A stretch of DNA of 64,000 nt from Nemertoderma westbladi (Eukaryota > Animalia > Xenacoelomorpha): positions 1,492 to 65,491 of the forward strand of contig JAUCBJ010008850.1 in assembly GCA_032718475.1 (NCBI GenBank). The letters run 5' to 3'. Both the position numbers and the translations under genes were made by a program. Under the pieces are notes generated by a model. It was not told the origin of the DNA. It searched no databases and was given only the letters and a program-made list of their open reading frames with translations. Each line of letters begins with the position of its first letter. Positions within the stretch are counted from its first letter, which is position 1. Shown here piece by piece: positions 8,689 through 60,822 of the stretch.

Positions 8689-8760
8689 GCCCCCGTGGTG
8701 TAGTGGTTAGCATACCTGAACGTTTATCGGGAGACGCGGGTTCGATCCCCGCTGGTGGCG
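8689..8760 (+). pseudogene. tRNA-like sequence (tRNA pseudogene or SINE head), nominal GTT anticodon
   Basis: 72-nt cloverleaf GCCCCCG TG GTGT AGTGGTTA GCAT A CCTGA ACGTTTA TCGGG AGAC GCGGG TTCGATC CCCGC TGGTGGC G. Anticodon loop lacks Y32-U33; one acceptor-stem mismatch. Confidence 0.7.
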
Positions 8761-11772: not shown

Positions 11773-12851
11773 TTATTATTATTTTAGGAAATATTAGCCA
11801 ATGACAACATGAATGGGCAATTCGGAGGGTTTATGGGAAATAGACAAATTAAAAGAGATGTGTGTATCGACAGACGACGTAAAATTATATATAAATGTGG
11901 TTCAAGGCCGAACGTATAAAGCGTAAGTTATATAAGTATAAAAACAGTACATAGTTTACCTGCAAATATCGCCCATGTGAAGAATACCATGTTTTCAGTT
12001 TTCGGTGATATTTTATTTGAATTTATGAAGCATTTTGTATTTTTTTTATTTCTCCCCATTAAGCGACTTATAACGACTATATCTATCTTATAACCTGTAC
12101 ATACAGTATGCTAATTCGTTTATTGTTTTGGTTAGATTCAGCCCTACTGTAACCTGGGTTTTAAGCGAAAACCTGGAACTGTAGGCCAATTCTTCACATG
12201 GGGGTAAACTGCAAAGTGACATATTGCGTGGTAAATACAGTAACATTATTTATCGTACAGTTAACTTAGTCTGTCGAAGACCTTCGCTATTTGGAAGCCA
12301 ACTCCAAACCAACATGGCCTGCGTGACAGTTTGACTTTTTAAGGATAATAAGTATTATAATCACTCAATGACTCTAACAATACATTAGACTTACATTACA
12401 TATGGAACTTAAACAAACGTAAAAATACTGTATATAATGTTTTATATTTTAGGTTCATTGAGGTAATCATGGATCTCGCCTGCTTGAGTAACTCCCACTA
12501 CCAAGAAAATTAGCTTTAATATAAGTTAATTGTTAATTATTAACTCTTTTAGTAAACTGGTTTTTCGCTTTATTATTAAAATATGGTTCCACGTGTAGGT
12601 CTACAATACTGTATTTGAACAACTAGCGTTATATTGTAGCTTTACGTTTCTGTAACAATGTAAGGATAAATAGCATTTTATTATGTTAAGAATATAGGTA
12701 GGCCTATATGACTTAATGTACAGGTATAGAATTATATTCCCTAAATGCCGTGGATTTTCAAAATTTTATTTTATTCGGATTAACTTTTGTAAAGATTGCT
12801 TTGAGTTCTCATTAGTATTGGTTCTATCTATTGTACATCTATCGGTCAAGT

Positions 12852-12938
12852 GGTTCAGTAGCTCAGTTGGTAGAGCGTTGGAAATTATATGTGTAGTAGG
12901 TATCGAGTTCGAATCCTAGTAAGTGCGAATTATTTTTT
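12852..12938 (+). promoter_or_regulatory. tRNA-derived Pol III type-2 promoter in U3 (copy at 27513-27599)
   Basis: A box TAGCTCAGTTGG (12859-12870) with GCTC/GAGC D-stem, B box GAGTTCGAATCC (12905-12916), T6 at 12933-12938. Confidence 0.75.
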
Positions 12939-12995
12939 GTACAGAATTTCAACTCGTTTAAATTAACCGCTACAAATTAATTGCATTTGTCTGTA

Positions 12996-13200
12996 CCAAT
13001 GAGACTGTAGTTATTTGATTGTAACCAATGTCGTGCAAGTTATATATTAGCTGGACCAATAGCTATCTTTAAAACCTTGTTAGAACCCATAGAACAATCG
13101 AGAATTTTCTCGATTGATTGCGGCACAAATTTGCTATAAAAGGGTGCGATTTGTTCATTAGTTATTATTCTATATTACTCTCTCAGTTATTCAGTTATCT
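12996..13200 (+). promoter_or_regulatory. Putative Pol II LTR promoter
   Basis: CCAAT at 12996, 13025, 13056 and CCCAT at 13086 (~30-bp spacing); palindrome 13095-13116 with GAAnnTTC; TATAAAAG at 13135; TCAGTT initiator-like motifs at ~13183-13196. Confidence 0.65.
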
Positions 13201-14645
13201 GATATTTGTTTATTCTGTGATTAGTTTTCAGATTACATCGTATTATAATTATATCTTCTGTAATAAAGTCAGAATATTCTCTCAGCTTTTCTATCTGTTT
13301 TACTATGAATTCACTACGGTGAACAAACTCAGGGACAGGATGGCCGGCTAGAGATCGGGCCGCAGCAATGAACGGGAACATCACGGGAATGTAGACGAGA
13401 GACAACCCGCAATACCATTTAGAGTTATTCGCCCATCGCCTGAAAGGTTAGACAGCGTTCGATCCTTGCTACCTAAGTGTAAGACCAAAAGATCAAAAGG
13501 TAGACGTAGTGACACGCTGTAAGCCCAAAATTACATCATAGGGACTGTACTGTCTTGATTCAGGAAAAACCCACAGTAGACCTTCACATTCCTACGGGGG
13601 GAGAGAGAGCGCAGGCAGATACTAGTACGCAGATAGGACGTAGGCACACCGGTACAAGGCATACACATTGGTTAGGGTGCAGCAAACTGTACGCTTAACT
13701 CTTGCTAAGTACAGGTGTGTGTGCGACTATTTGCAGTACGTCAGTGTCCATTGCATTAGAACTTGTAGGCTAGGGGGGTTGCTGTGTTTTCACCTGAATT
13801 GGGATTGTACCGTTCGGGCGGTAGGGCAGTTTACACTAGGCGCAAATAAATTGAGGCTATCAGGGATATACTAACATCTACCGTGTCCCCGCCAACGCCC
13901 TAATAGGAAGTTACCCGGACTACCTGGGTGACTAAAATTCTAGATAGGAGCCAGGATAGCTATTAGTACCCGTACGCCTACAGTAGTAAACTAACACATC
14001 TCTTCTTAGTATCAGGGACCTGGTACCTAAAATTGCCGAATTCTGGGCGTAGTATTAACCTTATGCCTGAATTTGAGTCCTGGAAATACGCAAGAGGGGA
14101 AGGAACCTTATCATTCGTGAGTATTGGACCTACAAGTTATAAAATTGGAATATTCGTAAATGCACACCGTACCCAGTAATTATATATGTGAAGGAGCAAA
14201 ACTGTTTTGACCGTTCAGAATTATCACACGCGCGTTAGAAATTATTTACACCTCGAAATATATAAAATTAACTTTGTCCGTACTGTGCTTTGCCCGCTAG
14301 TTAGACATCTCCAAATCTCTGCCTGTACCTAGCTAGCGTCTCTTTGCCCAACCATATAAATCACACCGCGGCAAAGTATACGAGCCCCTTAGTCCGTCAG
14401 TGAGTCAGCCTGATTTTAGGATTCGCTGCGCGGGATTTTGTTTTATCGAAGTTTGTCTGCTCGTAGACTGTTTTCTGCCTCACCGGTTATAAGAGATCGA
14501 TACTGCAATATATTCGCTTACTTAGAGTTTACTGTTTTGGTGAGAAGGTCGGATTTATGATTTGATTTACAAACTTTACAGTAGGATATTGCAGGTATTG
14601 TTACCGTCTTTTCGTATAGTAGGAATAGGCGTATCTCTTCCAATA

Positions 14646-14656
14646 GTAGGAATGTG
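14646..14656 (+). promoter_or_regulatory. Primer-binding-site position, self-complementary to LTR 13585-13595
   Basis: GTAGGAATGTG abuts the 5' LTR, lacks TGG, and is the exact reverse complement of CACATTCCTAC. Confidence 0.7.
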
Positions 14657-15454
14657 TTTTACTGAACTACGGTTCGGTAGGACTAAAGTTATTTGAAAAT
14701 TTTGTATTTTGAGGTAAAAATTTATATTTGATTAGCTAAGTGCTAATTTTTTGAAATAAAATTTGATTTGAACCGCGTGTAAAATATTTTGGAATTGAAT
14801 ACCGGTGTTTAAAAGGGTTTAAATACCATATTGTACCGGTACAAAATTTTTCGTAAAGTAAAACCTAACTCTTTTGTTTTTCAGGATTCAGAACTCATTT
14901 CTAGACTGTAACGGGAGCAAGACCGTGTTTAGCAAGTTTGGGAGATAGATAACTCAACAACTTTGGTTGGGAAAATCGCGTTTCGTCCGCAACGTTAAAA
15001 ACGGAAGGGTTCACGTCCGGTTTGTATCTGGGAATCTGTTTTTCTGGAGAATTATTGGAGTGGGTGAGTTCGAAAAGTTGCATAAATAAGTTAGGCATTA
15101 CCGTATTAGTTAAAAATTATTGTGGGTTCCACTGTCTCAAGTATTTATGCATTCCGTACGATTTCTTTGTTCATTGCTGAATTAGTCCGTATTATTGTAT
15201 TTAATTTATCTTTTGATAACGCATATCGTTATCCGATTTATTTGTTATAAAATTGGGCGCTAGGCTAATTTTATTATATACTCATTCCGTGACATTTATT
15301 TGCTGTAAAATTGGCCGTTTAGGCTAATTTTATCCATCTGCTATAAAATCGGCCGGTAGGCTAATTTTATAAGACTGTAATTAGTACCGTTTAGATATAA
15401 ATACGGTAAACTCGATACTTTGACACTCACTTTACTTGACTTACAACTACCGAA

Positions 15455-18400
15455 ATGAGTGACAAACAAGACTATACGAAGAATACACAAACCGACTATG
15501 ACTCATGCGACGGAGATAAGTCAGCAGCGGAAGAACAACAGGGGAAGACTCGCGAGCCTACCGAACCTACACCGTGTGCGTCACCAGTACATCCAACGGG
15601 AGTACCGGATGCCGTAGTACGAGGTGACGGCAGGACCGAGGACTTTCTAACTGTTCCGCAACCTAGATACAGGGAAACGGAAATGGTAAGTTCAGCAGGA
15701 AGCACAGAAAGTGTGGTTAGAAGCGTCGGAGGTTACATGGTGCATATTACCAGGAGTATTGGAGAAGGCCAACGCATATTAGACGGGTTGACCGCTCCGA
15801 TGTCTCGATTCGAGTTCTACACCCTCCAGGTTAGAGTACAGAGTAAAGTATATAAGTCCGTAGATAATCTAGTTGGCCTACAAGATCTAGCTAGACAGAG
15901 ACAGGACATGGATACTCAACTTAGAATCCTCGAGAAACTAATGATCGCTAGAGAGAAACTGATTCAGTTTAAGTCGACGATTAGACAGATACAACAGGAA
16001 CAAGCGGACCAGTTGTTAGGTGAGTCAGTTTCGGACGAATTATTACAACCCGAGGAAGAACAGGAACTGTACCGACTGGATGGACAATTAAAACACCTGA
16101 CGGACCACTTACGCATGTGCGGCGAAGACGTCGGCGATTTGGAAACCGTGCCGGAATATACGAGGGAAACTTCATTCGCACAAATCGAATCGGCACCGGG
16201 AATACTAAATCAATCGCTGGTAAGTATTCGTAGCGAAATCTGCGAGGGAAGTATGGTCACGTCAGAAGTTGCTCGACAACAGCAACAGTTCTACAGACAG
16301 CAACACGATATGGAAGAACAAGCTCAACTTCTAATGATACAAACAGCGGTAGAGGAAGAGAAAATACGTGTCGCGAATGTAGCGAGAATCTCTCATCTGC
16401 AGGAACAAGCCGAACTCGAAGCGGCCGAAATGGAAAGGTTAGAGTTGGACATTGCCCAACAAGCGGCAGCGGCCAAGTTAGCGCAACGAACGGCAACGGC
16501 CGAGTTAGAGCGACAAACGGCGGCAGCCGAGTTAGAGCGACAAACGGCGGCAGCCGAGTTAGAGCGACAAACGGCGGCAGCCGAGTTAGAGCGACAAACG
16601 GAAGTGGCGGAGTTAGAAAGAAAGCGACTAGTTTCAGAAGCCAGAGTCGAGATGAAGACACGGCAAATAAAAGCCCAACAAGCGATACGACAAGCAGAGT
16701 TCGAGGCGCAACAACAACAAACGGAACAACGAGAAAAGGAAGTTAAACTCCGTTTCGAACTTGAGAAAAGGGCGAGAGAATTAGCCGAAACCAAGGAAAA
16801 TCTGGATCTTCTAGCTCGTGATCGATCGATGAGATCTCGTGACGGACATGATCTAGACCAGTTAGAGGTAAGGCACCGCCAAATCCAGGAACGAATGAAG
16901 GAAGGTTCGGTAGGGGCACCTGGACGAGAAAGACAATTAGTTAAGGACTTATGTCAAAGATTCCCTCAGGTAACTCCTATGTTTGCACCTGTTACGACTA
17001 AGGAACCTGTTTCGATTGCTGGTAGCAGTGATATCTCTCCTATCCATGGTGTGACGGAACACAGGTTTGTTATTCCGGACAAGTTTATACCTTCAAGAGC
17101 AACGTCGTCGCCTATTTTGAGGGTCAAGGTAAGTAACCCACCGATTACAGATCGTAGTAGTTTATTGACCGGACCTGCACTACTGACGACAAAACAGGTG
17201 AGTCCACCTTTGACACCTAAACCCGTTACGCACTACGAATACCCAATGACGTTTCGACCTACAAGGCCAGTTGATTCAAATGCTGTCATTCGTCCACCGG
17301 TTCAGTTTGCATCGCAATCTACGACTTCAAGGAAGACTTGTGAGCCTACCGAACAACGGAGACCAGTGGATACGCGACCGCTCAACCAGTTCACATCGCA
17401 ATCTACGACTTCGAGGAAGACTTGTGAGCCTACCGAACAACGGAGACCAGTGGATACGCGACCGCTCAACCAGTTCACATCGCAATCTACGACTTCGAGG
17501 AAGACTTGTGAGCCTACCGAACAACGGAGATCAGTGGACGATGTTCCGAAACGAAATGTTAAAATTCGTACGACGCAACGGACGCGAGCACGTCGACCAC
17601 CATATCCGGATGATAGTAGTACTTCGAGCGAATCGGATTACCCGAAACGCGAGGTATTTAGAACAGGGGCGGCCGATGAATATAAACGCGAGCGTTCAGA
17701 CAACTCCTTTGCAGACAATCCTCCACAGAATACACCAACACCGAAGGCGTTACAACCAACGGACGCAATTAGTACACAACAGTTCGCCGACATTCTGCGA
17801 CCAGTTGTCAATAAGTTGGCTCAGATCGAGGAACGTCTGGAGGAAGGTTACACCGACAGTTCGAGAAATTCCGAATTCGAACACAATAGACACCCGAAGG
17901 CACCACAAAGACCGGTACCTTCAAACCCCACATCGTATCAGGGAAAAGCGCCAAGAAGGGAGAACATCAACCAGACTACCAACCAAGGACGCGAAACTCT
18001 GAACGTTGCCGAGGAGATAGCGAAATTCGCAGCCAGACAGGGATTGCCGGTACAACAACCACCGAAGTTTTCCGGTAGCTCAAAACACTGGCATACCTTC
18101 GTAGACTATATCGAATCCCAGATCGCCGTGTGCGCCTTTACATCACGGGAGAAGTTCAATTACCTGCTCCAAACGTTGTCAGGAGAACCTAAACGTTTGG
18201 CGGAGACTTTCGTCGGTGTACCGGACGCTTTCGAACTAGCGTACGATCGTTTAACTTCGATATACGGAGGTACAGTGAGTATGGCCAGGTCAGTAATAGA
18301 GGAACTCTGTAAGGGAGGGGCTATCACTAAACCCGTCGACTTACTAAAACTAGCTGACGAGATCAAGAACGCTATCACTACCTTAAGATCAATTGGACAA

Positions 18401-21400
18401 CTTGATTACGGGAATACCCCTACAGTTCTATTAAAGATAATAGGACGACTCCACCATCGACTTCGTCGGGAGTGGAGGAAGGTCGAATACCAGCGAGAGG
18501 AGCGAGGAGGATTCCTAAAATTAGAAGATGTGTACCTTTTAATATCCAGGGAGGCGGTAGTAGAAACTCGATCTAACTATACCGACCAGCACATCGTGGC
18601 AGAAGGGATCACACTGCCATCCTCCAACCGACAAAAACCCCAGACAACATCCACAAAGACGGCCACTTACGCCACACCGACGGAATCACGACAATTCTCA
18701 GACGGTAATAGAGTATCTGCGCCCATTGGGACAAAACAGACGAGACAGCAACTCAGCACCGACTTCAACGGCTGCCAATACTGCGAGCATCTAGGTAAGC
18801 GGTATATTGGTCACAAGTTACGAGGTTGTCGACAATTTCGCGAGTTGAACTCGGAAGAACGACGGCTGCAGATACGGCCACTGGACTCTTGTTGGCGGTG
18901 TACGCGACACGGACACGTGCGTAAGGATTGCCCAAATACTGACACTTGTCCATCCTGTGGACGCAACCACGACGGTCTGCTCCACACAGACAGCCACACG
19001 CCGACGAAACGCTTCGCCAGGGAACACCCGGAAGCAGCAGCGAGATGTGATGCGGCCTACCGAAAACGAGAATCGAAAACGACTCCAACCTTTGTGACCC
19101 ATATTGAGGATTGCTTCTCAGAACAATCCGGATCGTCGGACGAAGAATCAGAAGACGACGATGAATATTCCAATGGAGACGAACAACCGTCGATCGCGCT
19201 CCTGACTACTGATCAACTGAAGGGATTCAGTGTAATCCCGATTAAGGTTACTGGCACAAAGGGAAGTAAGAGGATCTATGCGATTCTAGATTCAGCCTCA
19301 TCCCATAGCTACGTGGACGAAAAGATAGCTGACGTCGTAACGGATCTCAGACAAGGTAAACACGTCAGTTATACAGTAAGTAGTATGCACGGCCAGCGTG
19401 CAATACCAGTGACACGAGTTAAGTTGGACTTAGACTCTCTTCTTCCAAAATCGCAACACAGCGAGAGGGAGAGGTCTTTGTTACCCTTTAGAGATCTAAC
19501 CTTTGCGGCCACGAAGGACTTTAGTAACCTACTAGGTCCAGTGCCGGAACAATCTCTGGAGGACCGTAAGTATTTCAGACACCTTGGTGTACCCGAATGT
19601 CCTGTCAATTATAGATCGGTAGCAATGCTGATCGGGACGGACCAATTCAACCTACATCAGGTGTGGGAAACCAGACCATCGGCAGTTGTAGCGGGAAACG
19701 CATACGCCTGCAGAACGCCGATAGGGTGGTATACTCGAGCGCCTGTGCGCACACTAGACGTAAGTGACGAGGAAGACGATGTACAGAGTACATGTAGTTT
19801 ATTAACTACAAATTCTATTCATTCCTTTTCACACGACGTGAACCATACTACGCTACAGTCGACAAAACATGACAGACGGGTAACTAGTATGATAAGTCAC
19901 AAGGAGCAGCTAATCCACAAGGTGAGTTTGGAACTTGGGGAGAAGATGAGTCAGCTAGAGATTCCATCGACGACAGATGATAGGCTTGCGAGTCTACCTA
20001 CCCCAATAACCTCAACAGTGCCCGTCGATATCGATGATGACGCGTTGAAAATTCATCAGTTGGAACAAGCGGACCTGGACAAAGAATTAACGGAGAAGAC
20101 TATCAGGTGGTTTGAACAAGATACAGCTGAACCTGGTAGCTACGAACCTTGTATGTCGGAACAGGAGAAACAATCTCTAAAGATCATGGAAGATACTATC
20201 CGACAGACGGAGGACGGACATTACGAGGTGGGGATGTTATGGCGTAGCCAAAGTCCAAAACTTATAAATAACTACCCACTGGCTTTGAGACGTCTACACT
20301 CAATACGACAACGTCTATTAAAGGACGAGAAAGCCCATCTGCAGTACAACACTCAGATGGAGACGTATTTGACTGAAGGATACGCTATCCGAATGACTAA
20401 CCCGGAGCGAGTGACCGACCAGACGTACTACTTGCCACATCACTACGTGAGACACCCCGATAAACCAGACAAAGTACGTGTAGTCAATGACTGTGCGGCT
20501 CTGTTTGAGGGAATGTCCCTCAATAGTGAGTTGATGGATGGACCGAACATGAATAATTATCTAATGGGGGTGATTATGCGCTTCCGTCAGCGTCAAGTAG
20601 CCTTTACTTGCGACGTTGAAGCGATGTTTCACCAAGTAAAGGCTTTAGAGCGAGACAAAGACAGTTTGCGGTTCCTCTGGTATCCGGAAGGAGACTTAAG
20701 TCTACCACCAGCGACTTACCAAATGCAAGTTCGCGTTTTCGGTGCCAGAGACAGCCCAAATTGTACGATGTACGCCTTGAAGCAAGCCGCTAGAGATCAG
20801 AAACATCTGTATGACCCAGAGATAATTAGAATTGTGGAGCGTGACTTTTATGTAGATGACGGTTTACAAAGTTGCGACACAGTAGAACGTGCTACAACAG
20901 TAGCACATCAATTACGGGACTGCTTGGCGGGCGGAGGTTTTAACCTCACCAAATTCGCCTCAAACAGTGCCGAATTAGTTGACTCATTCGGAACTACTGA
21001 GCGTGGAGGTGGTGACATAGACCTAGAGTTCGAACCACTACCGACGACTAAGGTGTTGGGGCTCTTTTGGGACCCAAACACAGACAACTTTCGAGTGAAG
21101 GTGAGACTGGACAGTCAAGGAAACACACTGACCAAGAGATCATGCTTGTCAAAGTTGAGCCGATTGTTCGATCCGTTAGGATTCATCAGTCCAGTGATAC
21201 TGCAAGCCCGCATTTACATGCGCAGTATATGGAAGGATGGACTAACGTGGGACGAGCCGATCTCATCAGACCAAGTGGACTTATGGAAGACCTGGGAGGC
21301 GGAATTATCTTCGCTAGAGGATTATTTCATACCCAGGGTTTACTTTCCATTACAAAGTACATTTCCTGACAACTTGGAACTACACTGTTTTTCTGACGCC

Positions 21401-24253
21401 AGTGACAACGGTTTTGGTGTGGCAGCGTACTTGCGCAGACAAGTAGAATCAGACGAGTTCGATGTTTCGCTCATTACTTCCAAGGCTAAGACCATGCCTA
21501 CTAAGTATATGACGACACCACGAGCCGAGCTACAAGCCGCGACCCTGTCAACCACCATCGTGAACCTCATACAGACAGAACTACAGTCGAGTTTACAGAT
21601 ATTTTATTGGACTGAGGCGACGTTGGTTTTATTTTACATAAACAACGACACACTCGAATTCAAGACATTCGTAGCTAACCGTCGCGCAGAGATTCTAGAC
21701 CGTTCGATAAAAGAGGATTGGCGACATTGTCCAGGACCACAAAACCCAGCTGATATTGCGTCGCGAGGAATGATGCCTGAGGAATTCTGTAAACCGGAGA
21801 ACAAAGGGTTTTGGCAACACGGACCCCAGTTCTTGCAGAAATCGACACAAGATTGGCCTCCGTTATACGACAACAAGTCCAACACCATTCCAAAGGACGC
21901 CGAAATCAAGAAACCAAAAAAGGGGAAGACAAAGAAAAGGACAACGGCGGCAAAACTCAAGAAAAAACCGAAGGCAAAATGGAAGGATATAACTTCAAAG
22001 GTCAAGAGAGGAAGACTTGCGAGCCTTTCTACACCAGACATATCGCCAGACGGTCAACCAGACATGTTACTAGACAGCCAACCAGACATTTTGCCAGACA
22101 TATCACAAAATGTTCCACCAGACGCTAGTAACACACTGACAAACAGTAAAGCCGCAGTTTCCCTATTGGAGCGGCCTTCTATTGACAAACAACCAGATAC
22201 GTTACCAGACGTATCGCCAGACACATTACTAGACAGTCGACTAGACATTTTGTCAGAAACATCACAAAATGTTCTACCGGACATTAGTAATGTATCGACT
22301 AACAATAAAGCCGCAGTTTCCCTATTGGAGCGGCCTTGTATTGACAAACTACCAATTTTGACACACTTGAGCAACCATAAGCACGGTGAAACCTCATGTA
22401 TTACAGATGTGGGTAGTACCTACGCTAATGTAAATACAGGTGTTACTTTGCGCTCAAGAGACATACCGAACTTGCAACCTACGGTGAGACCTGGGATTAA
22501 TGTCGGCAGGAAAATAAGTTTACCGAAACCTGCTGACCCCATAGAGTTCAAACCACCATTAACGATCGACTTACAAAGTACCGACAATCAAGGTAAGAAG
22601 ACAAAGAAGGACAAATTACTTGTAGACCCCGACGGATCAACAGTCAACAAGGGAATACTTACCGGCGGACCCGTGGGCCCTTCTAGTAATTTAAAACCTT
22701 CCAAAATCTCCATTGACTTACCTGATGACGTCACAAATACTCATGTCGACCGTATTGTAAACTTAACAGATTCTTGGTCAAACGCTTGCCGAAAATTAGC
22801 GTGGATTGTACGTTTTGTACAATACGTTAAAGGCAAACGTGACTTTACACGTCGACTTACATTGGCTGAGATTGACAGGTGTGAGATTAAATTAATTCGC
22901 CATTATCAAATGCGATATTTCGCGCGCGAATTCACATCTATAAATCAAGGTCAACCAATCAAGTCGTCACCGATACTGAGTTGGAGTCCGATAATTTATA
23001 ATGGCTTAATTTGTCATAAATCTCGGCTTCAAAACATTGACTTTAATACGAATTTTAGATACCCAATAATAATACCGCAACACCACGAACTACAACGTGC
23101 AATGATACTGGACGCACATTTACATCTGAAACACGCTGGAAGACACCACTGTCTTTCCTACTTACGTACTAGATTTGTATTAATTAGACCCAGTAAAGCG
23201 TTAAGTTCAGTGACACGTACGTGTATTATTTGTAAAAAGGTACATTCTAGAATAGGTACCCAAGAAATGAGTGAACTACCACAAGCACGACTTCAAGCAT
23301 TCAAACCACCTTTTACAGAGACTGGAATTGATTGCTTTGGTCCCATACATACGAAACGTGGACGTATACTAGTAAAACGCTGGGGACTGATTTTCACATG
23401 TATGTCCAGTAGGGCAGTTCATATTGAACGTGTGATGGATCTTTCCACTAACGCGTTTATACTAGCACTGCGGCGATTTATCGCTAGACGCGGACTAGTG
23501 AAATGCTTGTACTCAGACCAAGGGACAAACTTTGTTGGTGCTCGGAATGAGATTGCTAGAGCCTTTAAGAAATTAGATCATGATCAAATCTCAAACGAAC
23601 TGCAACCTCACAAGATTGTTTGGAAGTTCAATCCTCCAGATAGTCCTTGGAGAGGCGGAGTCTGGGAGAGACTGATTAGATCTATAAAGACAGCAATGGC
23701 AAAGGTCATTCCAGTAAACCACATATTAACAGACGACCAACTGACAACATTGTTTGTTGAAATCGAGGCAATACTAAATACTAGACCAATAGTATTAGTA
23801 CCCGATGACAAACAATCTCAGTTTGCTTTGACACCGGCACACCTGCTAATGCAGGCACCGACGACTTTGACACCGATTTCTATTCCAATAGAAAGCGACA
23901 GCTACGGTAGAAAAGCGTGGAAAATCACGCAACTACTGGCTAACAAATTCTGGGAAATATGGCAAAACCATTATTTGCCCTCTATTTCTGCCAGAACAAC
24001 ATGGTACAATAACACCCGCGCATTAAAGCCGGGAGATCACGTGCTGTTGGCAGAAGTGAATCTAAAAAGACGCTTCTGGATAACAGGTGTAATTTTAGCC
24101 ACACATCCATCTATGGATGGAGTGACAAGAACTGTGACGGTACGAACAATTGACGGTCGTACAGTAGACAGACCGACTCAACGTCTCGTACTTCTTGAAG
24201 AAACTCGTAACGAGTCTGGAGACTACAAATCTCCACCTAATACTAGTAAATAA
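15455..24253 (+). CDS. BEL/Pao gag-pol polyprotein (2932 aa)
   Basis: Coiled-coil N-terminus; DUF1759-like PPKFSG..EKFNYL; Cys/His fingers (CWRCTRHGHVRKDC, CPSCGRNH..LLH); protease LDSAS; RT YYLPHH/FYVDD; RNase H FSDAS..PRAEL..NPAD; integrase HHCC, IDCFGP, SDQGTNF, GGVWERL. Confidence 0.97.
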   Translation: MSDKQDYTKNTQTDYDSCDGDKSAAEEQQGKTREPTEPTPCASPVHPTGVPDAVVRGDGRTEDFLTVPQPRYRETEMVSSAGSTESVVRSVGGYMVHITRSIGEGQRILDGLTAPMSRFEFYTLQVRVQSKVYKSVDNLVGLQDLARQRQDMDTQLRILEKLMIAREKLIQFKSTIRQIQQEQADQLLGESVSDELLQPEEEQELYRLDGQLKHLTDHLRMCGEDVGDLETVPEYTRETSFAQIESAPGILNQSLVSIRSEICEGSMVTSEVARQQQQFYRQQHDMEEQAQLLMIQTAVEEEKIRVANVARISHLQEQAELEAAEMERLELDIAQQAAAAKLAQRTATAELERQTAAAELERQTAAAELERQTAAAELERQTEVAELERKRLVSEARVEMKTRQIKAQQAIRQAEFEAQQQQTEQREKEVKLRFELEKRARELAETKENLDLLARDRSMRSRDGHDLDQLEVRHRQIQERMKEGSVGAPGRERQLVKDLCQRFPQVTPMFAPVTTKEPVSIAGSSDISPIHGVTEHRFVIPDKFIPSRATSSPILRVKVSNPPITDRSSLLTGPALLTTKQVSPPLTPKPVTHYEYPMTFRPTRPVDSNAVIRPPVQFASQSTTSRKTCEPTEQRRPVDTRPLNQFTSQSTTSRKTCEPTEQRRPVDTRPLNQFTSQSTTSRKTCEPTEQRRSVDDVPKRNVKIRTTQRTRARRPPYPDDSSTSSESDYPKREVFRTGAADEYKRERSDNSFADNPPQNTPTPKALQPTDAISTQQFADILRPVVNKLAQIEERLEEGYTDSSRNSEFEHNRHPKAPQRPVPSNPTSYQGKAPRRENINQTTNQGRETLNVAEEIAKFAARQGLPVQQPPKFSGSSKHWHTFVDYIESQIAVCAFTSREKFNYLLQTLSGEPKRLAETFVGVPDAFELAYDRLTSIYGGTVSMARSVIEELCKGGAITKPVDLLKLADEIKNAITTLRSIGQLDYGNTPTVLLKIIGRLHHRLRREWRKVEYQREERGGFLKLEDVYLLISREAVVETRSNYTDQHIVAEGITLPSSNRQKPQTTSTKTATYATPTESRQFSDGNRVSAPIGTKQTRQQLSTDFNGCQYCEHLGKRYIGHKLRGCRQFRELNSEERRLQIRPLDSCWRCTRHGHVRKDCPNTDTCPSCGRNHDGLLHTDSHTPTKRFAREHPEAAARCDAAYRKRESKTTPTFVTHIEDCFSEQSGSSDEESEDDDEYSNGDEQPSIALLTTDQLKGFSVIPIKVTGTKGSKRIYAILDSASSHSYVDEKIADVVTDLRQGKHVSYTVSSMHGQRAIPVTRVKLDLDSLLPKSQHSERERSLLPFRDLTFAATKDFSNLLGPVPEQSLEDRKYFRHLGVPECPVNYRSVAMLIGTDQFNLHQVWETRPSAVVAGNAYACRTPIGWYTRAPVRTLDVSDEEDDVQSTCSLLTTNSIHSFSHDVNHTTLQSTKHDRRVTSMISHKEQLIHKVSLELGEKMSQLEIPSTTDDRLASLPTPITSTVPVDIDDDALKIHQLEQADLDKELTEKTIRWFEQDTAEPGSYEPCMSEQEKQSLKIMEDTIRQTEDGHYEVGMLWRSQSPKLINNYPLALRRLHSIRQRLLKDEKAHLQYNTQMETYLTEGYAIRMTNPERVTDQTYYLPHHYVRHPDKPDKVRVVNDCAALFEGMSLNSELMDGPNMNNYLMGVIMRFRQRQVAFTCDVEAMFHQVKALERDKDSLRFLWYPEGDLSLPPATYQMQVRVFGARDSPNCTMYALKQAARDQKHLYDPEIIRIVERDFYVDDGLQSCDTVERATTVAHQLRDCLAGGGFNLTKFASNSAELVDSFGTTERGGGDIDLEFEPLPTTKVLGLFWDPNTDNFRVKVRLDSQGNTLTKRSCLSKLSRLFDPLGFISPVILQARIYMRSIWKDGLTWDEPISSDQVDLWKTWEAELSSLEDYFIPRVYFPLQSTFPDNLELHCFSDASDNGFGVAAYLRRQVESDEFDVSLITSKAKTMPTKYMTTPRAELQAATLSTTIVNLIQTELQSSLQIFYWTEATLVLFYINNDTLEFKTFVANRRAEILDRSIKEDWRHCPGPQNPADIASRGMMPEEFCKPENKGFWQHGPQFLQKSTQDWPPLYDNKSNTIPKDAEIKKPKKGKTKKRTTAAKLKKKPKAKWKDITSKVKRGRLASLSTPDISPDGQPDMLLDSQPDILPDISQNVPPDASNTLTNSKAAVSLLERPSIDKQPDTLPDVSPDTLLDSRLDILSETSQNVLPDISNVSTNNKAAVSLLERPCIDKLPILTHLSNHKHGETSCITDVGSTYANVNTGVTLRSRDIPNLQPTVRPGINVGRKISLPKPADPIEFKPPLTIDLQSTDNQGKKTKKDKLLVDPDGSTVNKGILTGGPVGPSSNLKPSKISIDLPDDVTNTHVDRIVNLTDSWSNACRKLAWIVRFVQYVKGKRDFTRRLTLAEIDRCEIKLIRHYQMRYFAREFTSINQGQPIKSSPILSWSPIIYNGLICHKSRLQNIDFNTNFRYPIIIPQHHELQRAMILDAHLHLKHAGRHHCLSYLRTRFVLIRPSKALSSVTRTCIICKKVHSRIGTQEMSELPQARLQAFKPPFTETGIDCFGPIHTKRGRILVKRWGLIFTCMSSRAVHIERVMDLSTNAFILALRRFIARRGLVKCLYSDQGTNFVGARNEIARAFKKLDHDQISNELQPHKIVWKFNPPDSPWRGGVWERLIRSIKTAMAKVIPVNHILTDDQLTTLFVEIEAILNTRPIVLVPDDKQSQFALTPAHLLMQAPTTLTPISIPIESDSYGRKAWKITQLLANKFWEIWQNHYLPSISARTTWYNNTRALKPGDHVLLAEVNLKRRFWITGVILATHPSMDGVTRTVTVRTIDGRTVDRPTQRLVLLEETRNESGDYKSPPNTSK
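17303..17540 (+). repeat. 84-bp (28-aa) in-frame tandem repeat x~3 in gag; a 27-bp AAAELERQT repeat lies at ~16490-16620
   Basis: GGAAGAC recurs at 17331, 17415 and 17499. Confidence 0.9.
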
Positions 24254-24914
24254 TTAGGAGTTTGTTTACAAATAGATTTCCACGTACCTGTACACCGTAG
24301 TAAGGACAGCGGTAGAATTCCATTGTCTTTATATGTGAACATTGAGGGTAGTACCCTTATGTGTCACATAGGAGCGGGATTTGTAGGTATAAGAAATGGA
24401 ATTCTACTTGGAACTCACAATATTGAGACATTTTCGAAATTTTAGACAATCCATTTGGATTTGAAAAATTTTAAAATTTTCTCCAGTGAATAGATTTCAG
24501 GGTACAGTCGGGTGGAACTTAAAATTAGAGAAACAAGAGAGGAAGACTTGCGAGCCTTTCTTAAAATTTTAATTAAATTTTACACGGTCTTGTTTCAATA
24601 AGTTACGTCAAATAGACTCCCCTATATTTATTACTAATTCTTGATTGCTTATTTTCTGATAATAGTTTGGGATCAAAAGGTGAGTATTTTAGACTCACGG
24701 CCAGTTTAGCCCAAATTCGTTTTTACTTCGGCAAAAATTTTAGATAAGAAGCAGCGTGTCATTAAAGAAACCTTAGATCTTAGGCTATGGGTAGGAGGTT
24801 AGAGCGTTGTCGAAGCCCAAAAGGCAGACGAAACTCTCACGTCTCCTCACAACTAACCACAAACTCTGTTGTATTCCCTCTAGTAGTAATGATTATGTAA
24901 CTACACCTCTAATT

Positions 24915-25250
24915 ATGGAGAAAGGGATACAAGGAGAGCCGAGATGGGGATATGATATCCAAGAGGAGGCAGCAGCGCCATTCAAAAGATTTGGAGCCAA
25001 GGACTACACTATATTTGGTATAAAGGAATTATCAGAAAGTACAGCGAAGCTCGCAAAGACAGCAATGCCTTTACTCGAGCAGGATTTAGCATATTTCGAG
25101 ACGTGTATCTTCGCTGTGCGGGATCTCTTATCGAAAGACCATCTATGTTTACATTGTTACCCTATGAAGGAGAACGTATCGTGGAGATTACGGATGAATC
25201 ACGGCAGACGCGCGCGCCTATCGGTCACCTTGGTGATGAATTCGAAGTAA
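24915..25250 (+). CDS. Accessory ORF2a of BEL element (probable N-terminal, zero-frame part of ORF2)
   Basis: attATGG start in good context after a splice acceptor at 24883; overlaps the -1 frame ORF by ~295 nt. Confidence 0.55.
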   Translation: MEKGIQGEPRWGYDIQEEAAAPFKRFGAKDYTIFGIKELSESTAKLAKTAMPLLEQDLAYFETCIFAVRDLLSKDHLCLHCYPMKENVSWRLRMNHGRRARLSVTLVMNSK

Positions 25251-26617
25251 CTACTACGATCACCGACGATCCTTTAGAGGAACTTCTTGAGATAGAAAGG
25301 AACCTCCCGAAGAAATCTCAGACGGAGATTCGACAACTTGAAGCAACGGATGCTATAGTTTGTATACAACCTTCAGAAACCTACCAACCCATAGACCCAG
25401 ATGATTACGATTATAGTATGGGAGGAAGCGCTCGACCGATTGGAGATCTTATATACGAACGAGTGTGGTACCCTGCCAATACGATGTGTAGTAAATGTGG
25501 CGTCGCTGGACATCATATGGCAAAGTGCAGTGGAAAGCACATTACTACGACTCAGCTAATCTGTGGATGGTGTGGGGATCAAGGGTCTCATACCTTTTAT
25601 ACTTGCTGGAGATTTATGGCTCAATGTACTTACTGCAATATAAAGGGACATCGAGCATCTGAATGCCAACTGAGAGACATACCTTATGAACACGAATCTG
25701 TTAAACTCGTGAGGAAATTATTTGATGAGTGGGAAGATTTGGCCGACGAACATGTATCGGCACAGAGAAGACGGTTTCCGATGAGAGCGCATCTCGGATT
25801 TTGGGCGGTAAATCCCCAGACGATGATGTCGGAAGGATATATCTCCGCTATGCCCCAATATGACGAACTTATCGAGGTTGTCGATATTTTACCCCACGAC
25901 AGCGGATTCCGAGTGGTGCGCGAGTATCTGTTACAAATTCACCCGGATAACAAAAACACGTGGAATTTTCAGAAAGTCGTTAATCGGATTACGTATGGTG
26001 AATTCGATCGTTTCCGAACTGAAAAGCGGAACAAGGGAGCTTGGTTAACCGTCGCATGGGCGTACCGAGCCGCGTTTTACCACAAACGTATACGAGCGAG
26101 CGTATTCGAGGAAGAAGAGGTCCTAGAGGCGACGAATATACCAGCCACTCCGGTTGCGCCGTCTGCACGTCACCCTCGGGAGGACGGACAGGGTAGGATC
26201 ATACGGGTCCAGAAGGTGGGCCAACATTTGAAGAAAATTATTAATGTAGAAGAACGCAAGGGAGTTGAGCCGACCATTCGAGTTACTCGGGATACGGTAT
26301 CACTTCCAAGAGAACCAGTAGGAGGATCGGGACATACACCAGCTGATCAACAGGGGGCGCAAGCTACTCTTGGGTCTGCGTCGTCCGCTTCTCACGCGTT
26401 CCCAGACGTTCTACCAACTGTAGTGACAACTGATCGGTCACGAGGAATCGGTCGAGGTTTTGGGATGCCAAATAGACGAATTTGCGAGGAAATAGTCGCA
26501 CCGTCTCTCAACGTCCCAAGTAAACCAGTGACTCGCCCCACAAGTCCCATATCGCGAGCAAAGTCACCTGTGCGCAGTTTTCGAGGACGCGGCAGGGCTC
26601 GATCTACTAAGCGATAA
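24956..26617 (+). CDS. Accessory ORF2b: triple zinc-knuckle protein with basic RS/RG-rich tail
   Basis: Frame open 24956-26617 (track ORF 25103-26617); CSKCGVAGHHMAKC, CGWCGDQGSHTFYTC, CTYCNIKGHRASEC; tail SPISRAKSPVRSFRGRGRARSTKR; no signal peptide or TM segment seen, so not env. Confidence 0.85.
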   Translation, partial: YPRGGSSAIQKIWSQGLHYIWYKGIIRKYSEARKDSNAFTRAGFSIFRDVYLRCAGSLIERPSMFTLLPYEGERIVEITDESRQTRAPIGHLGDEFEVTTTITDDPLEELLEIERNLPKKSQTEIRQLEATDAIVCIQPSETYQPIDPDDYDYSMGGSARPIGDLIYERVWYPANTMCSKCGVAGHHMAKCSGKHITTTQLICGWCGDQGSHTFYTCWRFMAQCTYCNIKGHRASECQLRDIPYEHESVKLVRKLFDEWEDLADEHVSAQRRRFPMRAHLGFWAVNPQTMMSEGYISAMPQYDELIEVVDILPHDSGFRVVREYLLQIHPDNKNTWNFQKVVNRITYGEFDRFRTEKRNKGAWLTVAWAYRAAFYHKRIRASVFEEEEVLEATNIPATPVAPSARHPREDGQGRIIRVQKVGQHLKKIINVEERKGVEPTIRVTRDTVSLPREPVGGSGHTPADQQGAQATLGSASSASHAFPDVLPTVVTTDRSRGIGRGFGMPNRRICEEIVAPSLNVPSKPVTRPTSPISRAKSPVRSFRGRGRARSTKR

Positions 26618-27385
26618 AAGGGAGGGCAAGGGTGGACGGAAGACTCGTGGGCCTTTCTTATGATTTGTGATTTATTTTGAATTATATGTTTTATATTTAG
26701 AAAATTTAGTAAAACTTATATTTTATATTTGTGCTTATTCCGAACTTATGCAATTTGTATTGTTCCGAATTTATGAAATTTAGAAATAAGAATTTATATT
26801 TTGTAAAACTTATATTTAGTAAAACTTATATTTTATATTTGTGATTATTCCGAACTTATGCAATTTATATTGTTCCGAATATTATGCAATTTATATTTTA
26901 TAAGCAGTATTTGTATTTACAGTGAAATAGAAAGTTTTATAGATAGAAAAATTTGTGCTCAGAAAGACTCATATTTGTAATTATTCCAAACTTATGCAAT
27001 CTACATTTAGGTACGAAAGTATTTGTAATTACTTGAATTTATGCAAATATTTGAGATGCAATAGTAGATGGAAGACTCGCGAGCCTTTCTTATTGTTTTA
27101 ATTTGTTTGTGTTTGTAATTGTTTAAATTTATGCAATATTGAGATGCAATAGATTTATATTGGTGAATTTAATTTAGATTTATATTGTACTTACTTAGTA
27201 AAGCCTTAAATACGTAAAGTTTGAATTTGTAATTATTTTTGTATCGAATCATTACGTAGAAAGGAAGTATTGTATGAAATTTAATTGTAAATATGTAAGT
27301 ACGCCCTAAGTATTCTATAGTTTAATTGATTATTGGTGAAAACCGTATATTTTATGCACGATAATATCCTGTTTTCATGGAGCGG

Positions 27386-29306
27386 TATAGAATTATATTC
27401 CCTAAATGCCGTGGATTTTCAAAATTTTATTTTATTCGGATTAACTTTTGTAAAGATTGCTTTGAGTTCTCATTAGTATTGGTTCTATCTATTGTACATC
27501 TATCGGTCAAGTGGTTCAGTAGCTCAGTTGGTAGAGCGTTGGAAATTATATGTGTAGTAGGTATCGAGTTCGAATCCTAGTAAGTGCGAATTATTTTTTG
27601 TACAGAATTTCAACTCGTTTAAATTAACCGCTACAAATTAATTGCATTTGTCTGTACCAATGAGACTGTAGTTATTTGATTGTAACCAATGTCGTGCAAG
27701 TTATATATTAGCTGGACCAATAGCTATCTTTAAAACCTTGTTAGAACCCATAGAACAATCGAGAATTTTCTCGATTGATTGCGGCACAAATTTGCTATAA
27801 AAGGGTGCGATTTGTTCATTAGTTATTATTCTATATTACTCTCTCAGTTATTCAGTTATCTGATATTTGTTTATTCTGTGATTAGTTTTCAGATTACATC
27901 GTATTATAATTATATCTTCTGTAATAAAGTCAGAATATTCTCTCAGCTTTTCTATCTGTTTTACTATGAATTCACTACGGTGAACAAACTCAGGGACAGG
28001 ATGGCCGGCTAGAGATCGGGCCGCAGCAATGAACGGGAACATCACGGGAATGTAGACGAGAGACAACCCGCAATACCATTTAGAGTTATTCGCCCATCGC
28101 CTGAAAGGTTAGACAGCGTTCGATCCTTGCTACCTAAGTGTAAGACCAAAAGATCAAAAGGTAGACGTAGTGACACGCTGTAAGCCCAAAATTACATCAT
28201 AGGGACTGTACTGTCTTGATTCAGGAAAAACCCACAGTAGACCTTCACATTCCTACGGGGGGAGAGAGAGCGCAGGCAGATACTAGTACGCAGATAGGAC
28301 GTAGGCACACCGGTACAAGGCATACACATTGGTTAGGGTGCAGCAAACTGTACGCTTAACTCTTGCTAAGTACAGGTGTGTGTGCGACTATTTGCAGTAC
28401 GTCAGTGTCCATTGCATTAGAACTTGTAGGCTAGGGGGGTTGCTGTGTTTTCACCTGAATTGGGATTGTACCGTTCGGGCGGTAGGGCAGTTTACACTAG
28501 GCGCAAATAAATTGAGGCTATCAGGGATATACTAACATCTACCGTGTCCCCGCCAACGCCCTAATAGGAAGTTACCCGGACTACCTGGGTGACTAAAATT
28601 CTAGATAGGAGCCAGGATAGCTATTAGTACCCGTACGCCTACAGTAGTAAACTAACACATCTCTTCTTAGTATCAGGGACCTGGTACCTAAAATTGCCGA
28701 ATTCTGGGCGTAGTATTAACCTTATGCCTGAATTTGAGTCCTGGAAATACGCAAGAGGGGAAGGAACCTTATCATTCGTGAGTATTGGACCTACAAGTTA
28801 TAAAATTGGAATATTCGTAAATGCACACCGTACCCAGTAATTATATATGTGAAGGAGCAAAACTGTTTTGACCGTTCAGAATTAACACACGCGCGTTAGA
28901 AATTATTTACACCTCGAAATATATAAAATTAACTTTGTCCGTACTGTGCTTTGCCCGCTAGTTAGACATCTCCAAATCTCTGCCTGTACCTAGCTAGCGT
29001 CTCTTTGCCCAACCATATAAATCACACCGCGGCAAAGTATACGAGCCCCTTAGTCCGTCAGTGAGTCAGCCTGATTTTAGGATTCGCTGCGCGGGATTTT
29101 GTTTTATCGAAGTTTGTCTGCTCGTAGACTGTTTTCTGCCTCACCGGTTATAAGAGATCGATACTGCAATATATTCGCTTACTTAGAGTTTACTGTTTTG
29201 GTGAGAAGGTCGGATTTATGATTTGATTTACAAACTTTACAGTAGGATATTGCAGGTATTGTTACCGTCTTTTCGTATAGTAGGAATAGGCGTATCTCTT
29301 CCAATA
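27386..29306 (+). repeat. 3' LTR of BEL element
   Basis: Direct repeat of 12725-14645, followed by TSD ACAGG. Confidence 0.97.
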
Positions 29307-29847
29307 ACAGGTGTTGTACTTTATTTAAGTTGGTGTAATATCATTACACGATTATTTTCTCCTGAATATCAGTTAACAATTTTTACCAAAAACAACCCGG
29401 TGATGACTAGCTTGACATGTGCACATATCGCCCCGACTCTAGAACTCTAGCTTCCTACTGTATGTTTAACGCAGACTCCGGATAAGGAATGTTGATTACA
29501 AAGTTATCAGGCCTGTCATTAATTATTTAGGAGGTCATCTCATAAGCCTGAATATCTTATAAACAAAAAAAAATATAATAATCTCAAATTGCCGCAATGT
29601 GAAGGTAATCCAATATTTTCACGATTTTCCAAATTGGTTCAACGCATTACAGAACGCTGTTTCCAAAATTACTGATTACAGGTACTTTTTAAATTAGTTT
29701 TACTATTATAAAGATTACTTTAATGGGGAGTTGGTGCACAAAGGTAAATTACGATAAACAAAGTATCTTACAGTATAAAACCTCCTTCGGTTTCTAATGA
29801 ATACAGAAACTTCCTCTGTTGAGACGAGTTATAAAGTCAACACATTA

Positions 29848-32800
29848 TTATTCTTTGTCCCTGGCGTGATTTCTCTTAGCTTTAGCCAATATACTGGGAC
29901 ATTCTTCCATGCAGGCCAATGTGAGATAGTCAATATAGGATTCCAAGTCCTTTTTAACATTGCTTAGTTCTACAATCTGCGAAAAATAAATGCTATTTAA
30001 TAAAAAATATGTTATCAATTAATAGAAAAAAGCTGTTTTTTTTTTCACTACTGTACATAATTTTATTTGACCGAAAATATAAAAAGATGAAAAAAAGAAT
30101 ATAAAAATATTTTATTCTGTCTGCTTTAATTAACTTTTTTAATTAAGTACAACTTGTTTTACATCAATGCTCTTTCTATTCATATAATACTATCTGAGAA
30201 ATTCGACCAAAAATATTCAGTTTTTATTTTTATAAAATAATTTTCACTACAATTATGCATTTGTTCTCATAAGCAATTATTCCTCATGACGTTATAAATT
30301 AAGAATCAAACTACAGGTTAGGCCTACATACTGTACTGTATATTCGTTGCCAAGTAGGCCTACAGTACTACACTGACCTCAGAGCGCAGTTTTATAATTT
30401 CATTTACAAGAATATCTTTCTTTAACTTCTTTAAGGACGTCGGATCTTTAGCTGATTTCTCGGTGTTTGTCGGAGATGATTTAGGTGTCGGAATTTCTAC
30501 AACTATACTGGGTACCGGTAACTTCCTTCTAGAAGCTCTCAGTGAAATATTGGACAGAGTCCTAATAATAGCGGTAGACTTATAACGATGTTTCGTGTCT
30601 CTTTTAATCTCTGAACCCCCATTGGTGGAGGTAGACTCCCTAATGTACGGTGATACTACAGCTAAGTTATCTGTAGACTGGGATTGAAGTTTCTCTGAGA
30701 TGAAATTCCCCTTTTGTTTCGACTCGTTTAACAGTTTTTGAATTGTCTTAACATCGGCGCGTTTGTTCGGTTTTTCCACCGTATCAACTCTGTCGTCTGC
30801 AGCGAGCTCATCTACTGATTCCCATATCGGGGTTCGACTCTCCGTTTCGAAATCCAGTCGATTCGATGAAATATCGTTTAACGATAACGACATCCGTCGC
30901 ATCTGGCCAAGTGGACGACCTCCAATCTGTTATTACAAATAATAATTTTATTGGTAATATTAAACCAGAAATTTTCATCCAAAGTAATTTTTATTCCAGT
31001 GTCATGTTATCGGCGTTTTATATTTAATTTACACCCACTGCAAAATTGGCTATGTAAATCCATCTGAGTCAGTCGGTTTACATACTGTATTATTATTTTA
31101 CATGAATGGTTTATTACTTTACAAATTCTTTCCAATCAAACACAATCATTTATAAATAAGTATAATTAGGGCTTTTGCACACTTATAATATTAATTTAAC
31201 CGGTGTTCTGATGGCTGCTGGCTGACTTTCCGCCGTACGAATTGTTTCCAATTTGGCACCATTTTGGGACGATGACTTTTCCGTTGTAGTCTCATTTCTT
31301 CCAGTACGTTTATTTTTCAATGTCGCTTTTGTAACATATGCCTCGTAGGTCAATGAACCTTTGCGTAAATAAAGAAATATTAGCAATATAGACGACATAC
31401 TATAGAACGTAGATTTATTGTATGTTACCCGAGTGATTGTGTCACGTTTTACGTTCATGTATGTTTTAAAGGATAGTTTTCTAAATATATAAATAAAATT
31501 ATTATCAAATGACTTTGATCACAGATGATATAATTGAGGTTTTGTTCTTACCTAATTGTCCAGATTCGGATTTTTTGGTTTTTTTCGGATTTTCTATATT
31601 AACCGTCGTCGCATGCATACATATTCCCGGTATGGTTGTTATGGGAACGCTAACTTGCCCAATCAATGAGGCTTTGTCTTTCACAGTCATGAGGACTTCT
31701 CGACACAATTTGTCTATTTTACTAAAACATTTTGCAAAAATACTAAATATTGATGTACAACATTGTGAAATGACTAAACCAACACCGACTTACAGTATAA
31801 TACAATATACATACTGTACAGTTTCTCATACAATAAATAGGAACCGGAGTTAACATAAAGAATGGCAGTACTGTACTACAGATTCCTTGACCCCAATGCG
31901 ATCTGGTCCTGTCCATTTCATCCTTGCCATGTTAACTGACCGGGACCTCTGGTCATGTCCATCGTCTACAGAAGGTCAACTGTCTACGTCCATCGTCTAG
32001 GTCCACTGTCTACGTCCATCGTCTAGGTACACTGTCTATGTCCATCGTCTATGTCCACTGTCTACGTCCATCGTCTATGTCCACTGTCTATGTCCATCGT
32101 CTATGTCCACTGTCTATGTCCATCGTCTATGTCCACTGTCTACGTCCATCGTCTAGGACCACTGTCTACTTCTATCGTCTATGTCCACCCTCCATGTCCA
32201 TCGTCTAGGTCCTCTCTCTATGTCCATCGTCTATGTCCACTGTCTACTTCCATCGTCTATGTCCACCCTCTATGTCCATCGTCTAGGTCCTCTCTCTATG
32301 TCCATCGTCTATGTCCACTGTCTACGTCCATCGTCTATGTCCACCCTCTATGTCCATCGTCTGGGTCCACTCTCTATATGTCCATCGTCTAAGTCCACTG
32401 TCTACGTCCATCGTCTATGTCCACCCTCTATGTCCATCGTCTGGGTCCACTCTCTATGTCCATCGTCTAGGTCCACTGTCTACGTCCATCGTCTATGTCC
32501 ACCCTCTATGTCCATCGTCTAGGTCCACTCTCTATGTCCATCGTCTAGGTGCACTGTCTACGTCCATCGTCTATGTCCACCCTCTATGTCCATCGTCTAG
32601 GTCCACTCTCTATGTCCATCGTCTAGGTCCACTGTCTACGTCCATCGTCTATGTCCACCCTCTATGTCCATCGTCTAGGTCCACTGTCTACGTCCATCGT
32701 CTATGTCCACCCTCTATGTCCATCGTCTAGGTCCACTCTCTATGTCCATCGTCTAGGTCCACTGTCTACGTCCATCGTCTATGTCCACCCTCTATGTCCA

Positions 32801-50584: not shown

Positions 50585-50908
50585 TCTAGGCCGTTCAAGA
50601 CTATGCGATAGCTCTGGTGGCAAAATTATGAACCGTGTATTATAATCTTCAACATGCAGTGAATTTGTGGATTGTTTATATATAGATATGTTACATCATT
50701 ATCCAGTTATCTAAACACTTTGCAGCTTTGAATAGGATTTGATTGAGAAGGCCAGTCCGAGCAAAGTCGAGTAATAGTCCTGAAATAGCCACTGTCTGGC
50801 TGTCAGGATTCAGTTTGCTGCAGCTATTTGCATCTCAAATTAAAATACACCACCTCCCTTAATACAACAACCATTTATAGGGGGTCGGAGCCCCCACCCA
50901 CCCACAAT

Positions 50909-60751: not shown

Positions 60752-60822
60752 GTCTTAACTCACAAGAGTCTTAACCTCTAAGACCTGCCGAACTGTGACT
60801 GCTAGCCACCGACAGAGTAAAG

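Follow-up and report, generated by a model that had tools for sequence, protein, structure and literature searches.

What primes reverse transcription in a BEL/Pao retrotransposon whose 5' LTR is followed by no tRNA-type site? The question is raised by an element in a 64,000-nt stretch of Nemertoderma westbladi DNA, the whole of which is referred to here as the window; positions are those of the window, and the element and its features lie on the forward (+) strand. The Belpaoviridae are described by the ICTV as tRNA-primed, with an 18-nt site for tRNA-Arg or tRNA-Gly (PMC8742986). For the window element, comparison of sequences makes it quite probable that a primer encoded by the element itself takes the place of the tRNA; this was the core of the original prediction, and covariation across relatives supports it.

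Element Structure and Gene Content

Self-comparison of the window delimited a BEL/Pao element of 16.6 kb (12725–29306), flanked by the target-site duplication ACAGG (12720–12724, with a copy at 29307–29311). The element is a young copy, and its 5' LTR (12725–14645) and 3' LTR (27386–29306), each of 1921 bp, have a single base difference, at 14224. The LTR termini are TAT..ATA (12725–12729 and 14641–14645) and not TG..CA; in two relatives (L002 and L012) the LTR ends in TATA at its 3' side and starts with TGT. A short purine tract (27379–27385) lies directly ahead of the 3' LTR. The single, uninterrupted Gag-Pol ORF (15440–24253; feature entry 15455–24253) encodes the Pfam domains DUF1759, Peptidase_A17, Integrase_H2C2, and DUF5641 (PF03564, PF05380, PF17921, and PF18701) in the order PR-RT-RH-IN, and the best protein matches carry the same domains. 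The assignment to BEL/Pao is based on these protein domains; the LTR pair, purine tract, and target-site duplication are also as expected for the group, whereas the 18-nt site for the 3' end of a host tRNA described by the ICTV has no counterpart (there is no TGG at the LTR edge). The closest RT-region matches are approximately 40–43% identical, the named ones coming mostly from marine invertebrates, and comparison of sequencing-run contigs with the window indicates that the family is high-copy in three samples of one organism.

At 2937 aa, Gag-Pol is of unusual length; it has internal repeats (17303–17538 and 22058–22354) and, separating RNase H from integrase, a long insert. One of the four catalytic acidic positions of the RNase H deviates from the residue present in 49 of 49 aligned relatives, while the other three positions and the RT motif match those relatives; this particular copy may therefore be unable to cut RNA by itself. 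A second ORF (24956–26617; 553 aa from stop to stop) has three CCHC-like motifs and no Pfam match, and an atlas search leads from it to zinc-knuckle proteins with scores under 0.9. Its first ATG in frame is the one at 25145; earlier, a frame of 111 aa opens. Its product could be a nucleic-acid chaperone or export factor.

Elsewhere the window contains a tRNA-Asn(GTT) gene or pseudogene (8689–8760), a long satellite with a 13-bp sub-period (31845–43000), and long frames at 46928–50695 (–) and 60799–63654 (+), the two that were tested against Pfam, without matches; the latter region could be the gag side of another element.

Candidate Primer-Binding Site and LTR Complement

The candidate primer-binding site, GTAGGAATGTG (14646–14656), adjoins the 5' LTR with zero gap and lacks a TGG. 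Its exact complement, the candidate self-primer CACATTCCTAC, lies inside the 5' LTR at 13585–13595, precisely where it had been predicted, and recurs by sequence match in the 3' LTR at 28246–28256. GTAGGAATGTG has a single occurrence in the window and CACATTCCTAC occurs only at 13585 and 28246; within the element there is no other complement of at least 10 nt to the first 11 bases after the LTR. A perfect complement of about 11 nt in the element's own LTR, with its 3' end facing the LTR edge, is one of the features expected of Tf1-type self-priming, and it is what we find here. The 11-mer is situated approximately 420 nt behind the predicted transcription start and approximately 1050 nt ahead of the LTR end. 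Two candidate polyadenylation signals flank it: an AATAAA upstream (13262–13267) and a second 250 nt downstream (13845–13850), the latter spanned by a contig of sequencing run X4 (13774–14185). A primer longer than 8 nt built by splicing, as an alternative to the contiguous 11-mer, was not found in this LTR. A rare variant at 13587 was observed in sequencing-run contigs, and DNA runs X1 and X3 contain a low-depth relative in which a different U5 end (14555–14645) is joined to the same primer-site side.

U3 contains a degenerate stretch (12834–12928 and 27495–27589) that is tRNA-like, has A/B-box-like motifs, and precedes a T run. It was missed by default ARAGORN and by Rfam and was called only at a relaxed score; from its sequence it is possibly a Pol III promoter or a captured SINE head. 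As a source of the primer it was rejected, its complementarity to the site being a chance-level 8-mer. The Rfam search gave no significant match.

A match of this kind could have arisen by chance within a long LTR, the more so as many features had been scanned in the original prediction. Of 10,000 dinucleotide-shuffled LTRs, 3 contained the 11-mer, or 9 with offsets of 0–3 admitted, which argues against coincidence. The extended primer:site duplex has a predicted energy of approximately –57 to –59 kcal/mol, compared with a mean of –22.8 and a best value of –36.4 kcal/mol for other LTR windows against the same target (n = 154). However, 1 of 20 control targets also reached –56.4 kcal/mol (13360–13420 with 15112–15185), so that duplex energy alone is not unique to the site, a point in favor of coincidence.

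Covariation Among Relatives

An alignment of 50 RT-region sequences led to 78 metagenome loci (from the best 80 of 561 confirmed stretches) and 56 MAG-contig loci; among these 134, RT was surrounded by a direct repeat in 54. Nineteen relatives with a readable 5' LTR end were hand-picked ahead of scoring, and the remaining 35 repeat-bearing loci were left out because they reached a contig edge, consisted of tandem repeats, or were ambiguous. At six loci the 3' copy supplied the LTR, whose start was placed following an initial inspection. Complements were scored by one fixed rule: an offset of 0–3, a GTRAG/GTRCG donor, and an acceptor having YAG and no fewer than 8 pyrimidines out of 12. By this rule, 10 of the 19 relatives have an 11–15 nt complement to the site in their own LTR, with different letters in each. 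The complement is contiguous in two (L002 and L048) and assembled across a GT..AG intron in eight (L010, L013, L042, L064, L082, L083, L089, and L090); the across-intron test was suggested by acceptors directly ahead of partial complements, and the split primers have GTRAG/GTRCG donors and pyrimidine-tract acceptors. None of 378 swapped pairs and none of 160 shifted sites (0/538 controls) reached 11 nt. With a less strict requirement on the acceptor, an eleventh relative, L095, also has 11 nt. In each of the 11 strict cases, that of the window element included, the helix is perfect Watson–Crick, 11–15 nt long, and 0–3 nt from the LTR edge, with its 3' end facing that edge. The co-variation between site and LTR called for by the original prediction was thus recovered, including its compensatory changes: these are found across families and within one closely related pair (L082 and L083), near-identical in RT, in which two site positions differ and both are compensated at the exon end. 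The sequences thereby show that the pairing exists, that it is in register with the LTR edge, and that a clade has kept it while its letters changed.

This clade-level result, 10 of 19 relatives against 0 of 538 controls, largely refutes chance, which we regard as the least probable of all the explanations considered.

A further explanation is priming by a host RNA, either a tRNA half or a small RNA that terminates in the 11-mer, the LTR copy being captured or coincidental. Half-tRNA priming is known in copia lineages, according to the available part of PMC6317226, and element-derived small RNAs are possible. However, primer sites all differ among the self-complement families, which rules out one shared host primer, and it would be unexpected for eleven different sites each to be matched by their own LTR, eight of them only across a splice junction; moreover, the 11-mer is absent from the one tRNA gene of the window and from the U3 tRNA-like stretch. 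Priming by a host RNA is very improbable, if a little less so than chance.

Four families with a tRNA-type TGG site (L108, L110, L115, and L125), of the kind that could have contradicted self-priming, have no complement (0/4), and all fall outside the clade. In a tree of 20 rows (L134 was left out as too short and L119 was added), the window element and all self-complement families form a 15-row group with support of 100/99, apart from the TGG families; the branch of the window element is long (1.83), and no tree row is more than 42% identical to it. Four relatives without TGG (L012, L088, L127, and L134) showed no LTR complement, the boundaries of L127 and L134 being doubtful. Two of them (L012:6973–7540 and L088:5615–6200) are well bounded and belong to the clade, with neither TGG nor complement found and with splice donors in their LTRs. 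In L048 one LTR copy has the acceptor and the other the joined primer, likely an intron-loss variant in a mixed assembly. A[AT]TAAA is present in 7 of the 10 strict relatives, each time 1–90 nt downstream of the primer.

No relatives were found among viral contigs; the single 19-base match (L001) lacked an LTR complement and resembled the element in no other way, and it was dismissed as chance. BEL/Pao contigs (L080–L135) are present in many bacterial and archaeal MAGs, where they are most likely host-DNA contamination.

RNA Folding Around Primer and Site

Beyond the core helix, the original prediction extended the pairing outward and inward. All of these flanking pairs can be drawn; across families, however, the inner stem is not conserved (permutation p = 0.23), the outer stem is weakly conserved (p = 0.027), and local hairpins compete with the extended structure. 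What is general across families is the core helix only. The inner stem (13599–13606 with 14634–14641 at the LTR end; 8 bp) is specific to the window family, where it outdoes 22 of 22 swaps. The c(UACG)g-capped hairpin behind the primer site is also obtained by folding, but it extends over 14660–14679 rather than 14664–14675, and the outer pairing of CAGTAGA (pair probability 0.16) has to compete with it.

Folding of the whole region bore out the helix in part. Only the 11-bp helix and the inner stem form, and only if the fold starts at 13560 or 13585, in which case the primer helix has a probability near 1. In folds from 13165 or 13400, a local hairpin (13574–13645 with 13719–13784) that would hide the primer is favored by 4–5 kcal/mol, rising to 11 kcal/mol when the leader to 15460 is included. 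This rival arm is a prediction, and such a hairpin would conceal the primer in either LTR copy. In L002 the primer helix probability is only 0.28. The control pair of equal energy, 13360–13420 with 15112–15185, is predicted to form a long-range stem that links the first exon to the leader and encloses the primer:site helix.

These competing folds of similar energy, together with the long-range stem, which is a leader helix unrelated to the primer site, would be compatible with a conserved regulatory structure acting in splicing, packaging, or as a translation switch, with a protein or a different RNA as the primer. We consider this improbable, although less so than a host RNA, given that the 11 strict helices are all perfectly paired at 0–3 nt from the edge and occur only in families without TGG, and that no other primer site was seen.

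Transcription and Splicing

A TATA box (13135–13140) predicts a transcription start near 13165. One contig of run X4 contains a joint called at 13444→14883 that becomes GT..AG with the cut moved by +2, connecting 13446 to 14885; its shorter side has 26 letters, below the caution limit of 30. The donor GT is inside the LTR (13447–13448), and the joint opens a leader exon (14885–15063) lying between an acceptor AG (14883–14884) and a donor GT at 15064. The joint is absent from runs X1, X3, and X5, of which X5 (labelled "RNA?") comprises only 10 contigs, without the primer or the site; the run search listed no RNA run as carrying the sequence. Run X4 is labelled "DNA?"; however, A>G changes account for 106 of the 177 variant places listed for it, and from this excess and a GT..AG joint missing from the other three runs we infer that X4 represents RNA. 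In one X4 contig, dense A>G changes at 14186–14303 resemble ADAR editing, which would imply double-stranded RNA. The depths of X4 contigs step down after approximately 13280, 13446, and 14185, although such depths cannot rank the parts.

A joint leaving from 13446 makes a start upstream of that position likely, as had been predicted, with the TATA box at 13135 as the candidate. There is no TATA box 30 nt ahead of the 11-mer in the window element, and among 12 families one at about that distance from the primer is clear only in L010. The primer is therefore likely an internal segment of RNA and not the first 11 bases as in Tf1, while a second start near the 11-mer may exist. Contigs of X4 cover 13527–13717 and 13774–14185, and none of the contig joints listed leads from 13446 to the region of the primer.

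Splicing from 13446 to 14885 would remove both primer and site, yielding an mRNA for Gag-Pol and the second ORF, and the unspliced RNA would serve as genome. One contig leaves the leader at 15063 and resumes like the window from 24884; the second ORF is thus likely reached by splicing from 15063 to about 24884. None of the nine self-complement relatives with a located ORF start has an acceptor between site and gag, as the window element does, which indicates that this splice is not a trait of the clade.

Proposed Source of the Primer

Under self-priming, LTR RNA would anneal to the 11-base site next to the 5' LTR and start reverse transcription there, after being cut directly 3' of the 11-mer, probably by the RNase H of the element (by analogy with Tf1), and it would then be extended. 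The DNA sequence fits three topologies: the 5' copy acting in cis, the 3' copy acting in cis, or an LTR-only transcript acting in trans.

In the first of these, the 5' LTR copy of unspliced genomic RNA would pair in cis and be cut after C13595, leaving a capped primer of approximately 430 nt, and strand transfer would need 3' ends beyond 28257. This has the same topology as Tf1, and it is consistent with the inner stem peculiar to the window family, with the AATAAA downstream of the primer, with the X4 contigs on both sides of 13717–13774, and with the near-certain helix in folds from 13560 or 13585. On the other hand, the local hairpin wins when folding begins at the predicted start. In intron-bearing relatives, moreover, a single RNA would need to lose the 5' intron by splicing, pass over the AATAAA that follows, and retain the same intron at its 3' end in every generation, and there is no obvious reason for plus-strand copying to stop once 11 nt of so long a primer have been copied. 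We rate this sub-case of self-priming as a credible second choice.

The reading we favor, though it falls a little short of an even chance, is that the primer comes from an RNA ending in the LTR, either the 3' LTR copy folding back or an LTR-only transcript. The preference over the 5' copy derives from three inferences concerning the introns of relatives and RNA processing rather than from data on the window element, which has no intron in its primer, so that the argument is borrowed from those relatives. Eight of the 10 strict relatives can form the primer only by splicing and nevertheless pass the intron on; template and primer would consequently be differently processed copies, a spliced and polyadenylated 3' copy priming on an unspliced 5' LTR. 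Splicing of a last intron promotes use of an AATAAA behind it, while an unspliced donor suppresses such a signal, a rule in keeping with splicing at the 3' end but not at the 5' end. Were a 3' copy the primer, strand transfer onto the flank upstream of it would trim it, a possible reason for the nearly constant length of 11–12 nt. With the 3' copy as primer, strong-stop DNA would run to the cap, and transfer would require no long 3' read-through.

Extending priming by a 3' copy to a whole clade of animal BEL/Pao elements is somewhat more doubtful than either topology for the window element. In such a scheme each element's own RNA would, at its processed 3' end, supply the primer: the 3' LTR copy, made ready by host splicing and polyadenylation, would fold back onto the site and be cut, serving as both primer and strand-transfer acceptor, and the window element would be a version lacking the intron, with its 5' copy concealed by a hairpin instead.

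Comparison With Known Systems

BEL/Pao replication is poorly understood according to the ICTV profile, which gives LTRs of 0.2–1.2 kb and genomes of 4.2–10 kb (PMC8742986). The window element resembles the Belpaoviridae in its LTRs, its 5-bp target duplication, and its DUF1759, Peptidase_A17, integrase, and DUF5641 domains in PR-RT-RH-IN order; it differs in having no site for a tRNA 3' end, LTRs of 1.9 kb with TAT..ATA ends, a length of 16.6 kb, and an extra ORF with zinc-knuckle-like motifs. In the literature searched we found no report of self-priming in BEL/Pao elements; subscription papers, Repbase, GyDB, and supplements could hold one. The available text of a BEL/Pao survey (PMC3118150) has no mention of primer, PBS, or tRNA, that of the Sinbad paper (PMC554778) none of PBS, tRNA, or self, and BEL/Pao self-priming is unmentioned in the portions available of PMC3601003, PMC6934838, PMC13524379, and PMC8220671. 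The clade-level feature is real, and the self-priming that it makes likely would, in this form, be new for a superfamily whose priming is ascribed to tRNA.

Should the members of a broad clade be primed by RNA of their own LTRs in this way, self-priming would occur in a third LTR superfamily, in a form unlike that of Tf1, with an internal primer usually assembled by splicing. Host RNA processing would then be tied to the start of reverse transcription, and the failure of PBS searches in such elements would be explained.

Self-primers have been predicted from site/LTR complementarity, as here, for the plant TAR elements Houba as well as Osr-1 (Ty1/copia) and for Tcn1 (Ty3/gypsy), as far as the available part of PMC6317226 reports; those elements belong to other superfamilies and kingdoms, and a primer built by splicing is unmentioned in that part. 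Tf1 uses an 11-nt 5' primer released by an RNase H cut (PMC7175516, PMC4600332, PMC5341516, and PMC11042837, each in the parts available). Like Tf1, Tf2, Tj1, and the Tf1/sushi group of Ty3/gypsy as described there, the window element has no tRNA site and has an 11-nt perfect complement in its own LTR in priming register, with flanking stems possible (PMC7175516, PMC4600332, and PMC5341516, in the same parts). It belongs to a different superfamily, however, its domains being those of BEL/Pao and not of a Ty3/gypsy chromovirus polyprotein. Unlike that of Tf1, its primer is likely internal, and most relatives assemble theirs by splicing; cleavage by RNase H, demonstrated for Tf1, is proposed for the window element by analogy. 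The window element is thereby likened to Tf1 in its mode of priming, but it is not a member of the Tf1/sushi group.
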